This document shows, piece after piece, positions 33,530 through 55,185 of a stretch of DNA of 64,000 bases. The translations under genes and the position numbers were made by a program. Location: assembly GCF_055900595.2 (NCBI RefSeq), contig NZ_CM148325.1, one strand, 5' to 3'. Within the stretch, counting starts at the first letter, position 1. The number at the start of each line of letters is the position of its first letter. The notes beneath the pieces were generated by a model, which saw only the letters and a list, made by a program, of their open reading frames with translations, searched no databases and had not been told where the DNA came from.

Positions 33530-34033
33530 ATGTCACAAACCGTTCATTTCCAGGGCAACCCGGTTACAGTCGCCAATTCCATCCCGCTGGCGGGTAGCAA
33601 AGCGCAGACTTTTACTCTCGTGGCAAAAGATCTGTCTGACGTCACCCTCGGTCAGTTTGCGGGTAAACGCAAAGTGCTGAACATTTTCCCGAGTATTGAT
33701 ACCGGTGTTTGCGCCGCATCAGTACGTAAGTTTAACCAACTGGCAACCGAGATCGACAACACCGTTGTGCTGTGTATCTCTGCCGATCTGCCGTTCGCCC
33801 AGTCTCGTTTCTGCGGCGCAGAAGGTCTGAACAACGTTATCACCCTCTCCACTTTCCGTAACGCTGAATTCCTGCAAGCCTACGGTGTGGCAATTGCTGA
33901 TGGCCCACTGAAAGGTCTGGCAGCGCGTGCCGTTGTGGTTATTGATGAAAATGACAATGTGATTTTCAGCCAGCTGGTGGATGAAATCACCACCGAGCCG
34001 GATTACGAAGCAGCTCTGGCTGTACTGCGCTAA
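33530..34033 (+). CDS. tpx: Thiol peroxidase Tpx
   Basis: 167-aa ORF with peroxidatic Cys context ([10 protein letters not shown]). Confidence 0.95.
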
Positions 34034-34080: not shown

Positions 34081-34178
34081 GATCTACCAGTCCCACTATT
34101 TTCCAGAGTTCCTGCCACTATTCCCCCTAACCGTTGTGCATTAAGATTGCTCTTTGCCATTATTGGCCCAGCGGAGTG

Positions 34179-36230
34179 ATGACTATTATGGATGATAAAC
34201 AAATTACGGTCTGGCTTAAACACAATTGCTGTTCAACGGACATTCCTGCCATTGCCGAGGCACTAACGAACCATGCAGAATGGCTTTTAGAGCTAGCGCC
34301 AGATCCTATTGAACAAGGTAGTTCATGTTTACCGCCGACAGCTGCAGCCGGTATTTTTCTTGGCGCAGCGGCGATGGTTCACTGCGGCGAGGCTAGTGGT
34401 GCAGAAACCTGGCTCGAAGCAGCCATTACTGATTACCATTTCCTTAATCCAAATGGATATAGTTCATGGAGAGGCAGTACGCCTGTTTTTACAGCAATAT
34501 CGCGTTACCCGGCATTAAGAATGGTGTTATTTAACGCCGCTTGCGCAATGGAAGACTGGAATAAAGCATCCGCTGTTCTTGAATCGCTTTTCCATGCCAG
34601 CGATGTCCCGGAAGATAACCCTGTCGCCCCAAATTTTACCCCTTATGCGCTGAAAGCGTTTATCGCGGATTACCACCCGTTAGGGCCTGCTTATTATGAT
34701 GAAACCTGGTTGCTGGCAAAACAAGCGTGGTTAATTAATGCGGGCGTTCTGGATGAGCGAACCTGCAATACCTGGAAGCAATATACCCGCCACTTGCGCC
34801 ATTTGATCCACAATGCACAGTTTGCCGATGCGCTCTCTTTTGTACGCAGTAAAATAGAACCGTTAAATCATATCCATACCTACTCAGACTTTTATCTGTA
34901 TGCGATTGGTTTATTTTCTTATACTAGTCAGCTAAATGAAGCGCTGACCTGGATAAAACAGTTAATCCACAACAATGATGGTCATTTCTGTGATCTTTTC
35001 GTTTCAACTGGCAAAGAGCGCCGAATAAAGCCTGAACTTAGTACCTTGCTGAATAATCTCTTGCACAGCGCAGAGTTTCAGGCGTTGCAGGATAAATATC
35101 TCACCGTCGGACATGATGTTGTGCATTCTGGTCCCTTCATGTCAGTTTATGAAAAGGTTCTTGGCGGAAAGTCCCGAAAGCGCTGCGCGATTAGTCGAAA
35201 ATTAATCTCGCCCGGCGAAGCGGTTTATGAATATCGTCATTTGGATAGTGTGGAATATATTGCAGCGAAAGCGGCCTTTCAGACATCTGAGCTAAATAAT
35301 ATCGCCCACCGGCATCATAATGATAGTTATCAGTGGCATGAATTTGCCGCCCAATGGCCTCGTCGGGGTTCACTTTCTCACCCAGATATTGCCCGTTATT
35401 TGTTTGAGCGCCAGGAAGGAAAATGCTTTGATGCCGCAGAGTTTATACAACTGATTGCGGAACCGTTTGTCTTTCCGATGCGTTTCATATGGGTTGCCGG
35501 GTTGTCCTTTGAATTACATCAGTATCCGGATGCCTATTTCGTAAATGACAATATGGCGGGTGAATTTGTTAATCTCTGCTGGATGGCTATGAAATGCGGA
35601 CATGCTGGCGACATTTTCAAACAACTGGCCCACGAGCCGCATGACGTTGCTGACCCTATTTACGCCATGCTCGCCACGTTTGACCGCGCTGATTGCCGTA
35701 GCGCGGCCGCCGCGCACTTTGGACAACCGGAACTACCGGAAATAATGGCACTGGCTTTCAGTTCGAGGTTATCGCTCGACAGCGTCCTTACCATCGCTGA
35801 GTTTGGTAAAAATCAGCCGCGATTTTCACATGCGCTAGCAACGGCCCTCCTGCGTTACAACCTGCACATCTACTCAAACTATATGCCGCAGGTTAATTGG
35901 TACCTTCAGGGGCTGGAACACTATGCTTTGGCAAAAGGCGGTCAACTTTTAAATTTCTTTGTGCATATTCCAGAACAAATTCCCGTTCTGGCGACCATGC
36001 TGGAACATGGCGTATTAGTGCGTGGGATCGGTGAAGGTGCCTATGATGGTTATGATAATTCAGCAAATTCATTTCATCATGCCGTCGTGATGCACTGCCT
36101 CGCGCACGCGCCGGAAAAAGTCCGCTACTGGATGGAAACACCCTGGATTCAGAACTATTTAGTGAATGCGCCGCTGCGTCAAACGGCGCGCCATGTGGAA
36201 GCCTGGCATAAAAAGTTTGGCATCAAATGA
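34179..36230 (+). CDS. Hypothetical protein (~683 aa), function unknown; not present between tpx and tyrR in K-12 as I recall
   Basis: Track ORF 34134..36230 (opens with TTG); likely start ATG 34179 or 34188 downstream of GGAG (34174..34177). No signal peptide, TM segment or Walker A motif seen; Trp/Tyr/His-rich, apparently helical. Sits between tpx terminator and a GC hairpin (36239..36259) shared with the tyrR 3' end. Confidence 0.6.
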   Translation: MTIMDDKQITVWLKHNCCSTDIPAIAEALTNHAEWLLELAPDPIEQGSSCLPPTAAAGIFLGAAAMVHCGEASGAETWLEAAITDYHFLNPNGYSSWRGSTPVFTAISRYPALRMVLFNAACAMEDWNKASAVLESLFHASDVPEDNPVAPNFTPYALKAFIADYHPLGPAYYDETWLLAKQAWLINAGVLDERTCNTWKQYTRHLRHLIHNAQFADALSFVRSKIEPLNHIHTYSDFYLYAIGLFSYTSQLNEALTWIKQLIHNNDGHFCDLFVSTGKERRIKPELSTLLNNLLHSAEFQALQDKYLTVGHDVVHSGPFMSVYEKVLGGKSRKRCAISRKLISPGEAVYEYRHLDSVEYIAAKAAFQTSELNNIAHRHHNDSYQWHEFAAQWPRRGSLSHPDIARYLFERQEGKCFDAAEFIQLIAEPFVFPMRFIWVAGLSFELHQYPDAYFVNDNMAGEFVNLCWMAMKCGHAGDIFKQLAHEPHDVADPIYAMLATFDRADCRSAAAAHFGQPELPEIMALAFSSRLSLDSVLTIAEFGKNQPRFSHALATALLRYNLHIYSNYMPQVNWYLQGLEHYALAKGGQLLNFFVHIPEQIPVLATMLEHGVLVRGIGEGAYDGYDNSANSFHHAVVMHCLAHAPEKVRYWMETPWIQNYLVNAPLRQTARHVEAWHKKFGIK

Positions 36231-36267: not shown

Positions 36268-37809
36268 TCACTCTTCGCTTTTCTTCTGGTTTAAGCCATA
36301 TTCCCGCAACTTATTGGCAATCGCGGTATGCGAAACACCGAGACGTTTTGCCAGTTTGCGTGTGCTGGGATAATTGCGATAAAGCTGGGTTAATACCGAG
36401 CGTTCAAAACGGCTGGTGATTTCGTCCAGCGAACCTTCCATCGCATCTTCGCCCACGGCTACCGTTGCGGCGTCATAATCCGGTAACAAAATATCCTGTG
36501 GACGCAGCTCATAGCCGTCCAGTTGTGTCAGTGCGCGATAGATAGCGTTCTTTAACTGCCGCACATTTCCCGGCCACGCATAACGCGTAAGTACAGTATT
36601 CAGGTCAGCGGCCAGTTTCGGACGCGGCACGCCCTGCTCGTCGGCAAAGCGGGCGACGAACAGCTCGGTTAACGGCATGATGTCCTGCGGACAATCACGT
36701 AGCGGCGGCAGATTGAGCGTCAACACGTTCAGACGATAATAGAGATCTTCACGGAACACGCCTTTTTGCACCAGTTCGACCAAATTCTTCTGCGTAGCGC
36801 AAATAACCCTTACATCGACATGCACTTCATGATCTTCACCAACTCGACGGAAAGTACCATCATTAAGGAAACGCAGTAATTTCGCCTGCATCCGTGGTGA
36901 CATCTCACCTATTTCATCCAGCAGCACCGAACCACCGTTCGCCTGCTCAAAGAATCCTTTCTTCCCTTCCGGAGCATGACCAAAGAGCTCACTCTCGACC
37001 GCATCTTCCGGTATAGACGCACAGTTCAGCGCCAGGTAAGGTTTGCTCGCTCTGGGGCTTGCCTGATGGCAGGCGTAGGCAAAGAGATCTTTACCTGTAC
37101 CGGTGTCACCCGTAATCAGCAACGGCGCGCTTAGCATCGCCAGTTTCTGCGCCTGTTCGACAACATGCTTCATTTTCGGGCTGACGGCGACAATTTGACT
37201 GAAGGCACTGACGTCCTGTGCAGCGACATTCTGCAACTGACGGCCCATACGAATCGTCGAGCGCAACATCACCACCGCACCGGTCAGAACGTGTTGATCA
37301 TTTTCATCCTGAAGATAAACAGGCGTAATCTCCATCAGGAAATTCTGCCCATTAATAACGACATGCTCGTTATGCGAGTCTTGCGGTTCGCTTTCCAGCC
37401 AGCGTAAAAAATTAAAGCCGTTAATTAATTGCGCGGCGGTATGGTTGCGCAGGCGATCCAATTTTTGCCCAAAAAGCTGACAGCTCGCCGGGTTCGCCAT
37501 ATCCACTTTGCTTTTCATATCAACAGAAAGCACAGGTTCAGGCAACGCCTCCAGTAACGCGCTCAACGCCAGATGCTCACGTTCGGAAGGCATCCACGGG
37601 ACAGTACGCACATCGGTAACACCTGCAATACGGCGTATTTCGGCCATCAGACTGCTGAAGCTCTCAAACTCCAGTTCAGCAAAATTGAGGTAGATTCGCC
37701 CAATGGGGTCAATCTCAATACCGCGTAAATCAATGCCTCTTAGCACGAGTAGATCGAGTAATTCGCGGGTCAGACCGAGTCGGTCTTCACAAAAGACTTC
37801 CAGACGCAT
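36268..37809 (-). CDS. tyrR: Transcriptional regulator TyrR (sigma54-type AAA+ domain, HTH)
   Basis: Track ORF 36268..37836; start moved to MRLEVFCEDRLGLTREL (513 aa); Walker A GDTGTGKD. Confidence 0.95.
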   Translation of the reverse strand: MRLEVFCEDRLGLTRELLDLLVLRGIDLRGIEIDPIGRIYLNFAELEFESFSSLMAEIRRIAGVTDVRTVPWMPSEREHLALSALLEALPEPVLSVDMKSKVDMANPASCQLFGQKLDRLRNHTAAQLINGFNFLRWLESEPQDSHNEHVVINGQNFLMEITPVYLQDENDQHVLTGAVVMLRSTIRMGRQLQNVAAQDVSAFSQIVAVSPKMKHVVEQAQKLAMLSAPLLITGDTGTGKDLFAYACHQASPRASKPYLALNCASIPEDAVESELFGHAPEGKKGFFEQANGGSVLLDEIGEMSPRMQAKLLRFLNDGTFRRVGEDHEVHVDVRVICATQKNLVELVQKGVFREDLYYRLNVLTLNLPPLRDCPQDIMPLTELFVARFADEQGVPRPKLAADLNTVLTRYAWPGNVRQLKNAIYRALTQLDGYELRPQDILLPDYDAATVAVGEDAMEGSLDEITSRFERSVLTQLYRNYPSTRKLAKRLGVSHTAIANKLREYGLNQKKSEE

Positions 37810-37879
37810 GGGAACCTTCACCTGAAAAAAGAACAATTAATATGATGATATGACACTATTTGGATAGCAGGAAGGTTTC

Positions 37880-37897
37880 TGTCAACAATAATTGACA
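37880..37897. promoter_or_regulatory. Putative TyrR box upstream of tyrR (autoregulation)
   Basis: Palindrome TGTCAA-caataa-TTGACA resembling TGTAAA-N6-TTTACA, with the symmetric G and C 14 bp apart; 71 to 88 nt upstream of the tyrR ATG. Confidence 0.45.
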
Positions 37898-37956
37898 CAA
37901 AGACGGAAAAACGGGCACTTCGGCGTAAAGATATCCGGTCAGCACCCGATATTGCA

Positions 37957-39018
37957 TTATTTTTCGGCAGGAGTTTTGCCTTTTTGCAGCGTCTCTTTCA
38001 CCTGACCAATAAGCTGGCGACGGAAATCCCCGAGGCGAGGTTTGTCATCGTCAATCCACGGCAGCGGGCGGCAAAGCTCCATAGCTTTAATCCCCAGTCG
38101 TGCCGTCAGAAGTCCAGCACCAATCCCCTGAGCTGCGCGGGTAGACAAACGCGCAGCGAGATCTTGCGACATCCAGTCCATCCCCACTTCGCGCACCAGT
38201 TCGCTGGCTCCGGCAAAAGCGATATTCAGCAATACCAGCTTAAACAGGCGCAAACGGCTGTAATATCCCAGTTCAATGCCATACAACGTGGCGATGCGAT
38301 TAATCAAACGCAGATTGCGCCAGGCGATAAATGCCATATCCACCAGCGCCAGTGGGCTAACGGCAATCATTAACGTTGATTCCGCCGCTGAGCGACTGAT
38401 TTCGCGCCGCGCCTGAGCATCTAAAACCGGCTGGACCAGATGAGCATACAGGCTGACCACTTCACGATCGTTCTGCGTTTCATGGATTGACGCATACCAG
38501 CGTTGCAGCGCCGGATGGGACTGATCAATACCCGCCTGCTGCGCCAGTTTTTCACAAAATGCGCGGCCTTTGCCCGTGCCGTGGCTGTGCAATAAATCAC
38601 GCGCTTCGTCGCGTTCATGGGCGCGCTGTCGCAAGCGCCATAAGCGCCGCCACTCTGTTACCACAGAACCGACGCCAGCGCCGATAATCAATGCCCCAGC
38701 GGCACATCCACCCAGCGCTACCCAATCCTGAGTTTGCCAGGCATTCATCGTCCACTGCACGCCCTGTCCGACAACGCTTGCACCAAACAGAGCCAACCCG
38801 CCCATCACCATTTTGCGCCACAGGCTGCGTTTCGGACGTAACGCTGCGTCCATCACCGCTTCAACTTGCCCCTCTTCTTCCTGCGCTTCGTCGAGCGTGG
38901 CCGGGGCAAAATTTTGCGCCTGATTTTCGTCAAAGGTCTGCTGCGCCCTGAATTTTGGATTCTGATCGACCTCCAGCGGACCGTCGAAATCAATACGTGG
39001 TTTTAACGGTTCGGTCAT
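37957..39018 (-). CDS. ycjF: YcjF, inner-membrane protein (UPF0283)
   Basis: 353-aa ORF with central TM helices; translationally coupled to ycjX (4-nt overlap). Confidence 0.85.
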
Positions 39019-40412
39019 CGCAATTTATCTCCTATTAAAAATTCCAGCGCAGCATCAAGACGAATATGCGGCAGCGGTTTGTCGACATCCATCACCTGCG
39101 GACGAAACGCCTCAAACTGGAAGCCTTGCTTATCCCAGAACGCCTGACCAGGCAAACGTGCGGGAACTTCGCCAGGATAAACAGTGAGCGGTGCGCCATC
39201 ACTGAGTCGATTACCGCGCAGCGCCGGGATTTTCTCACCGTTAACATCAATAATGCCGCTGGTGGTCGCCTGAACTGACGCCAGCCCCAGGCAGTCCATA
39301 CTGATCCCTTCGAACGCCGCATTTTGCCAGGCATCCTGAATCAGTTGTTGCAGTAATGAAACCATATTGGCGTGCTGATCGATGGTCACATGATCCGCTT
39401 TAGTGGCAGCAAACAATAGCTTATCGATAACCGGCGAAAACAAGCGCCGGAACAAGGTACGCTGCCCGTAGTGGAAGCTTTGCATCAGCTGCGTCAGCGC
39501 CAGACGCATATCATTGAATGCTTGTGGTCCACTGTTGAGAGGTTGCAGGCAATCCACCAGCACAATCTGCCGATCAAAGCGCAGAAAATGATTTTTATAG
39601 AACCCCTTCACCACTTTCTCGCAGTAATAATTAAATCGTTCGCGCAGCATTCCGGCATTGGTGTGCTTGTCGGCCTGTGCAAGTTTTGATTCGCCCCAGG
39701 CATCGACATCCGGCCACGGGAAGAATTGCAACGCGGGCGCACCTGCCATATACCCCGGCAAGACAAAACGCCCAGGCTGAATAAAGTGCAGCCCCTGCTG
39801 TTTACAGTGGTGGAGATAATCGGTCCATGCGGCAGCAATGTCTGCAAGACGGTTTTCGTCGGCAGGTGCTAGTGGGTCCAGCCCTTCGCACATCATTCGC
39901 CATTTTGCCGACCATTCGCCGCGCTGACCATTGAGTAAGCCCGTCATCTGGCGCGACCAGCTTAAATAGTCCTGCGCCAACATCGGCAAGTCGAGTAACC
40001 ATTCGCCGGGATAATCCACTATCTCCAGATACAACGTGGAAGTGTCTTTGAAGTGACGCAACAGCGAATCGTTCGATTTATAGCGTAGCGCCAGGCGAAT
40101 CTCACTGACGCCGCGTGTTGGGGTCGGCCAGGCGGGAGGATCGCCATATAACTGCGCCAGCCCTTCATCGTAGGTGAAGCGTGGAATGCCAAAGTCACGC
40201 TGGGGAATGCGTTTTACGCCCAGCAGGCGCTCTTCACGCACCGCACTTAATAGCGGCAAGCGTGCTCCGGCATGAATATTGAGCAACTGATTGACCATCG
40301 CAGTGATAAACGCGGTTTTGCCGCTGCGGCTAAGTCCGGTTACAGCGAGGCGCAGATGTCTGTCGACACCCCGATTCACCAGCGCATTAAGTTCATTTTT
40401 AAGTCGCTTCAT
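39015..40412 (-). CDS. ycjX: YcjX, P-loop NTPase
   Basis: Track ORF 39015..40499; start moved to [12 protein letters not shown] (465 aa); Walker A GLSRSGKT. Confidence 0.85.
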
Positions 40413-40556
40413 TGCTGTCCTGTGGACCAGAAAAAAATCATTCGTAAGGATATGAATGTGGGGGCCATGCCCTTGATTATCAACTGCCCGTGTTGTCATC
40501 TTGAGGCGAACTCCATAAGATGTGCAGCATTCACGTTCGGACGGAGTTCCTGACCT

Positions 40557-55040: not shown

Positions 55041-55185
55041 TGAAGCGAGAGACTACTCCGCAGAAAATAAACTGTCAATTGAGCACAAGGGTTTTAGTCA
55101 CGCAGGAAATCATTTTTTACCAGGGAAAAAGCGTATTTGTGAGCTGACGCAAATAATCTATGGGGATGTAAATAAGGTGTGACAG

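Follow-up and report, generated by a model that had tools for sequence, protein, structure and literature searches.

TyrR boxes are classed as strong when at least 10 of the 12 consensus positions are matched, and the G and C that lie 14 bp apart within them never vary and are indispensable (PMC4374768). The TyrR dimer without ligand binds only to strong boxes, and the tyrosine/ATP TyrR hexamer occupies strong boxes jointly with weak ones (PMC6524683; PMC7142922). TyrR of E. coli exerts negative control over its own gene as well, and in the TyrR regulons reconstructed for gammaproteobacteria tyrR ranks among the best-conserved members (PMC5343134; PMC6375630). We focus here on an 18-bp palindrome upstream of tyrR in a 64,000-nucleotide stretch of DNA (the window), which is very probably a strong TyrR box and the operator of tyrR, where bound TyrR would hinder RNA polymerase and so produce negative feedback. 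The tyrR box was reportedly described as the tyrR operator by Camakaris & Pittard in 1982, by Cornish et al. in 1986 and by Pittard, Camakaris & Yang in 2005. The tyrR operator is already known, and the observation is a correct rediscovery of ordinary textbook regulation. The exact sequence of the box was not found in the literature searched, the primary tyrR operator papers being outside its scope, and the RegPrecise-based supplement of PMC5343134 lists neither b1323 nor the box.

The features of the locus, in the order in which they are met from ycjF through tyrR and beyond, are these:

37957..39018, minus strand: ycjF, a DUF697 inner-membrane protein (Pfam DUF697, E = 1e-55; b1322 in K-12)
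37907..37948, minus strand: terminator-like hairpin of ycjF, its stem pairing 37948..37940 with 37920..37912, followed by TTTTT at 37911..37907
37924..37941, minus strand: TGACCGGATATCTTTACG, a speculative candidate weak TyrR box, 7/12 matches with G-N14-C kept
37880..37897, minus strand: strong TyrR box, very probably the tyrR operator, with arms at 37897..37892 and 37885..37880 and the spacer at 37891..37886
37868..37873, minus strand: TTCCTG, a predicted weak -35 element 17 bp from TATCAT, placed by spacing
37845..37850, minus strand: TATCAT, the predicted -10 element, placed by conservation
37838, minus strand: predicted start of transcription, at an A that follows TATCAT by 7 nt, placed by the -10 position alone
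37815..37823, minus strand: AGGTGAAGG, Shine-Dalgarno region ahead of the tyrR ATG, read from the sequence
36268..37809, minus strand: coding sequence of tyrR (513 aa and a stop codon), the controlled gene and the source of the box-binding protein
34134..36230, plus strand: an unusual 698-aa ORF flanked by tpx (33530-34033) and by the 3' end of tyrR

On the plus strand, positions 37880-37897 of the window read TGTCAACAATAATTGACA, which in the sense of tyrR, on the minus strand, is TGTCAATTATTGTTGACA, that is, TGTCAA-TTATTG-TTGACA. The two arms, TGTCAA and TTGACA, are perfect reverse complements of each other, and between the G at 37881 and the C at 37896 there are 14 bp (G-N14-C). The box lies 71-88 nt upstream of the tyrR ATG (37809, minus strand). 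All of this, from the sequence and the perfect arms to the 14-bp separation and the distance from the gene, had been stated in the original prediction and is confirmed on the window sequence. That prediction had also called for a comparison with characterised TyrR boxes, which we have now run. Set against TGTAAA-N6-TTTACA, the palindrome agrees at 10/12 arm positions, the two mismatches being a C at position 4 and a G at position 15. With this number of matches and with its G-N14-C, it has both of the properties by which strong boxes are defined, and it also stands where a TyrR box of the regulon is expected, in the regulatory region of tyrR.

Counts over the window put these matches in proportion. 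The exact pattern TGTCAA-N6-TTGACA occurs once against 0.01 expected; perfect inverted repeats of the 6-N6-6 form number 20, compared with about 15 in shuffled sequence, and matches of 10/12 to the TyrR consensus number two in 64 kb against 2.56 expected, which is the level of chance. Neither the palindrome alone nor the consensus match alone is significant. The site is judged to be real because of three things taken together, namely its position before tyrR, its first rank among 63,983 positions under a weight matrix, and its conservation across 80 species.

For the matrix, the 260 nt upstream of seven other genes of the K-12 regulon were scanned for TyrR boxes. Boxes with at least 9/12 matches and G-N14-C were obtained at aroF (2), aroL (2), tyrP (2), aroP, mtr and aroG. 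These nine boxes, with tyrR left out, make up the matrix, which is partly circular, since its members were chosen by consensus match. Scored in this way, the tyrR box reaches 15.6 bits, within the 8.7-23.4 bits of the training boxes, and ranks 1/63,983 among the window positions.

The other 10/12 match to the TyrR consensus lies at 55167-55184 (TGTAAATAAGGTGTGACA), between pspE and ycjM; it directly follows the terminator of pspE and precedes ycjM by 126-143 nt. Its score of 14.4 bits is nearly as high as that of the tyrR box. It was set aside as a TyrR box, since the window would be expected to hold such a match by chance and since the sequence around it varies among E. coli: over 96 nt around it, 4,455 of 5,033 E. 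coli genomes are only 90-95% identical.

The locus as a whole is that of E. coli K-12, where ycjX-ycjF-tyrR are arranged and oriented as in the window, with a convergent tpx beyond tyrR. The K-12 box, TGTCAATGATTGTTGACA, is found at -88..-71 of tyrR, the same offset as in the window, and the K-12 operator is identical to that of the window in its arms and in its flanks over 81 nt. The exception is the second base of the spacer, at window position 37890, where the window has T (TTATTG) and K-12, like nearly all E. coli, has G (TGATTG). In a spread sample of 30 E. coli genomes, most differ from the window by exactly one base over the 81 nt, and only 8 of 5,407 complete E. coli genomes show no difference from the window there. 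Across the species alignment described below, the same spacer position is freely variable (A in 69 sequences, T in 7, G in 4, C in 1). As it varies so freely between species, the change seen in the window is probably neutral. Over the larger span of 401 nt around the box, identity of at least 99% is found in 11 of 5,415 E. coli genomes, and the window is therefore from a rare lineage.

A wider footprint was obtained by scanning species-representative genomes with the TyrR protein. This yielded 80 Enterobacteriaceae loci with 85-99% protein identity, from genera that include Escherichia, Citrobacter, Salmonella, Enterobacter, Klebsiella, Raoultella, Kosakonia and Buttiauxella, and these together with the window give 81 sequences. 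The box is present in 80/80 of the species loci, at 84-99 nt before the tyrR ATG. Mean column conservation over the 81 sequences is 0.995 in the arms and 0.90 in the spacer, and it is 0.65 and 0.70 in the two 20-nt flanks and 0.51 in the remaining ycjF-proximal intergenic DNA. The arm columns are 94-100% invariant; all six columns of the left arm stand at 100%, as do the G and C of G-N14-C. The only arm change is of a single base and is confined to a Buttiauxella-like group, where TTGACA becomes TTAACA or TTCACA. The symmetric non-consensus bases, C4 and G15, are themselves kept in 76-81 of the 81 Enterobacteriaceae sequences, and each arm is thus a TTGACA hexamer.

The controlled gene is intact. 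The TyrR product, which starts MRLEVFCEDRLG (MRLEVF...) at the ATG at 37809 and has its stop at 36268, is identical to K-12 TyrR at 509 of 513 residues. It carries the full TyrR set of Pfam domains (ACT, PAS, Sigma54_activat, AAA_lid_14 and HTH_50), and its C-terminal helix-turn-helix domain (residues 458-507, HTH_50) is unchanged relative to K-12. A TTG at 37836 is listed as an ORF start only mechanically, as the first in-frame start after a stop; the real start is the ATG at 37809. Ahead of it, the GGTGA of the Shine-Dalgarno region is partly conserved in the alignment.

The same alignment points to a promoter between the box and the gene. TATYAT is the sole -10-like hexamer that stands at one fixed offset in 81/81 sequences: five of its bases (T, A, T, A and T) are the same in all 81, and its fourth position is C or T. 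The distance from the end of the box to TATYAT is exactly 29 bp in 81/81 sequences (the 80 species loci and the window), whereas in the species alignment the -10 is anywhere from 31 to 46 bp away from the ATG. This rigid spacing argues that it is important where the box lies with respect to the promoter. Operator and promoter are jointly conserved in the orthologous loci, as is looked for in a negatively autoregulated gene. The predicted -35, TTCCTG, has only 2/6 matches to TTGACA, and part of it falls in a CTTCC block (37874..37870) whose five bases are 84-100% conserved. A transcription start at 37838, as predicted, would give a leader of 29 nt and would place the box at about -59..-42. The end of the box, at -42 from the predicted start, would then be 6 bp from the predicted -35, so that the box abuts the core promoter without overlapping it.

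A scan for consensus promoters returned no site on the tyrR strand, and tyrR has no entry in the supplements on transcription starts and transcript mapping of PMC4782308, PMC10301672, PMC7132871 and PMC4681348. Three further candidates were discarded. The right arm, TTGACA, was rejected as the -35 of the main promoter, there being no conserved -10 at 16-18 bp from it. A promoter-like match at 37817-37846 on the plus strand, considered as a divergent promoter, is simply the A/T-rich -10 region read on the opposite strand and was likewise rejected. A "tyrR promoter" with a G+C-rich discriminator in PMC3152329 was set aside, as we believe it to be a misprint for tyrT.

On its other side, the box faces the 3' end of ycjF, which is 60 nt away and co-directional with tyrR. 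Further upstream, ycjX and ycjF overlap by 4 nt; the ycjX ORF at 39015-40499 (minus strand) is listed with 494 aa from an upstream ATG, against 1,398 nt (465 aa) in RefSeq, and the excess is an artefact of ORF listing. Between ycjF and the box is a hairpin with a T-run that ends 9 nt before the box and has an unusually large loop of 19 nt. Pair counting in 34 species supports the hairpin: 76% of cells are paired, compared with 31-54% when the partners are slid; 45 cells are changed on both sides, compared with 17-25; and the covariation score is 0.43, compared with at most 0.17. As a single sequence, the fold is not unusual (z = -0.43), RNAalifold predicts no structure on the alignment of this region, and the terminator scan of the tyrR strand finds nothing, this hairpin included. 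The hairpin probably terminates transcription of ycjXF 9 nt ahead of the box.

The loop of this hairpin contains TTTAC (37929..37925), which is identical in 34/34 aligned sequences and forms the right half of the candidate weak box. The centre of that candidate is 44 bp (about 4.2 turns) upstream of the centre of the strong box, and the two are not adjacent. The candidate scores only 1.9 bits with the matrix, and the Enterobacter and Lelliottia group lacks the region homologous to it. TTTAC could be a distal weak TyrR box, or it could be something else.

The original prediction had gone on to suggest that the palindrome might act in both directions and affect the 3' end of a "new" neighbouring ORF, and this part does not find support. 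The near ORF is ycjF, which is known in K-12, and the promoter scan gave no outward-facing (divergent) promoter-like site from the box that we could accept. In an E. coli genome that does not differ from the window at any base of the 401-nt query around the box, RefSeq places two hypothetical proteins between tpx and tyrR, and after tyrR come ycjF, ycjX, ycjW and ompG. The ORF that is unusual here is the one of 698 aa, which has no match in Pfam. Its segment is present in 32 of 5,426 complete E. coli genomes, where it is annotated as a hypothetical protein or proteins, and nothing stands there in K-12; it is a rare accessory insertion. At 1.6 kb from the box, it is beyond its reach in any obvious way. 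The suggested bidirectional effect is unfounded because ycjF is co-directional and has its own terminator-like hairpin, and because the 698-aa ORF is at the 3' end of tyrR.

Could the conserved palindrome be something other than an operator? It might mainly be part of a promoter, with the TTGACA arm as a -35 or with AAT(A/T)(A/T)T in the spacer as a -10. TTGACA is after all the perfect sigma-70 -35 consensus and is kept in place of the TyrR consensus TTTACA, and the -10-like hexamer is found inside the box in 71/81 sequences. The left arm, TGTCAA, is however just as invariant and has no promoter role on the tyrR strand. At 16-18 bp after TTGACA, E. coli has CAAATA, in columns that are only 0.4-0.7 conserved, and the sole invariant -10-like hexamer, 29 bp away, is too far for TTGACA to serve as its -35. 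The scan's lack of a match on the tyrR strand counts against this reading as well, and we regard it as very improbable, although a promoter role of the palindrome could co-exist with TyrR binding. We give slightly less credit still to the idea that the site belongs to a different dimeric regulator and looks like a TyrR box by coincidence. What speaks for it is that both halves depart from the TyrR consensus at the same position (C4/G15), where 17 of 18 other half-sites have A/T. The 6-bp spacer and the G-N14-C are nevertheless the geometry of TyrR (PMC4374768), and the site stands before tyrR, a gene documented as autoregulated (PMC5343134; PMC6375630). Its matrix score, too, is within the range of the other TyrR boxes. 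To our knowledge, no other E. coli regulator has a site of the form TGTCAA-N6-TTGACA.

Least credible of all is that the palindrome functions as an RNA hairpin, a terminator or processing signal for ycjXF read-through, and not as a DNA operator. It does begin 60 nt past the ycjF stop codon, and a 38-nt stretch folds at -9.1 kcal/mol with z = -3.5 relative to shuffles, but such folding is expected of any perfect palindrome. Only 2 of the 6 pairs in the stem are G-C, and the stem is followed by GAAACC with no U-run, which is not the form of an intrinsic terminator. The terminator scan has no match at the palindrome, and just upstream there is already another hairpin, one that has a T-run and is backed by covariation. 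The arms show no compensatory changes and never vary, a pattern that fits sequence-specific recognition by a protein.

The reading of the palindrome as a TyrR box consistent with autoregulation, with which the original prediction had begun, is upheld by the motif, the K-12 box, the deep footprint and the published regulons (PMC5343134; PMC6375630). In the mechanism that we propose for this operator, a dimer of TyrR, made from the gene immediately downstream of the box, would contact the 18-bp site with its C-terminal helix-turn-helix. As at other strong boxes, binding at the tyrR box would take place without an aromatic amino acid cofactor. With the box directly upstream of the weak -35, at about -59..-42, bound TyrR would hinder RNA polymerase. 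As TyrR accumulates, transcription of tyrR would fall, and the feedback would hold the regulator at a low and steady level. We infer both where the promoter lies and that TyrR represses by steric hindrance; as the box abuts the predicted core promoter without overlapping it, simple occlusion by TyrR is only one possible form of that hindrance.

A more elaborate arrangement may be considered, in which the symmetric TTGACA arms, the conserved spacer, the fixed 29 bp and the upstream TTTAC make up either a dual-coded site at which RNA polymerase and TyrR compete or a looped complex of the strong box with a distal weak box. We consider this unlikely. If a looped complex did form, autoregulation of tyrR, or read-through from ycjXF into tyrR, would become sensitive to tyrosine. 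For the simple operator, the significance is that the classical tyrR feedback loop has been kept intact in a strain of a rare lineage that carries a 2.1-kb accessory gene beyond tyrR. The 29-bp spacing between operator and -10, the non-consensus arms and the invariant upstream TTTAC may be of modest use in modelling or engineering the regulation of aromatic amino acids.

The operator may finally be set beside the known TyrR systems. With K-12 the agreement extends to the regulator, the TyrR proteins being 99% identical. With the strong boxes of aroF, aroL, tyrP, aroP, mtr and aroG it shares the 18-bp palindrome, the G-N14-C, the A/T-rich 6-bp spacer and a consensus match in the range of 10-12/12. 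It differs from them at positions 4 and 15, where its arms have C and G and the half-sites of the other regulon boxes have A/T in 17 cases out of 18. In our scan, the strong boxes of tyrP, aroF and aroP are accompanied at a distance of 5 bp by another box-like sequence, whereas the tyrR box is without an adjacent weak box. The TyrR-activated ipdC of Enterobacter cloacae (PMC4374768) resembles tyrR in having its strong box upstream of the -35. The effects are opposite, activation at ipdC and reported repression at tyrR, and so are the distances unlike: between the centres of the box and the -35 there are 33 bp, or three turns, at ipdC (PMC4374768), compared with about 18 bp at tyrR, as predicted. 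Given this difference of about 18 bp versus 33 bp, the geometry at tyrR is therefore not that of activation.
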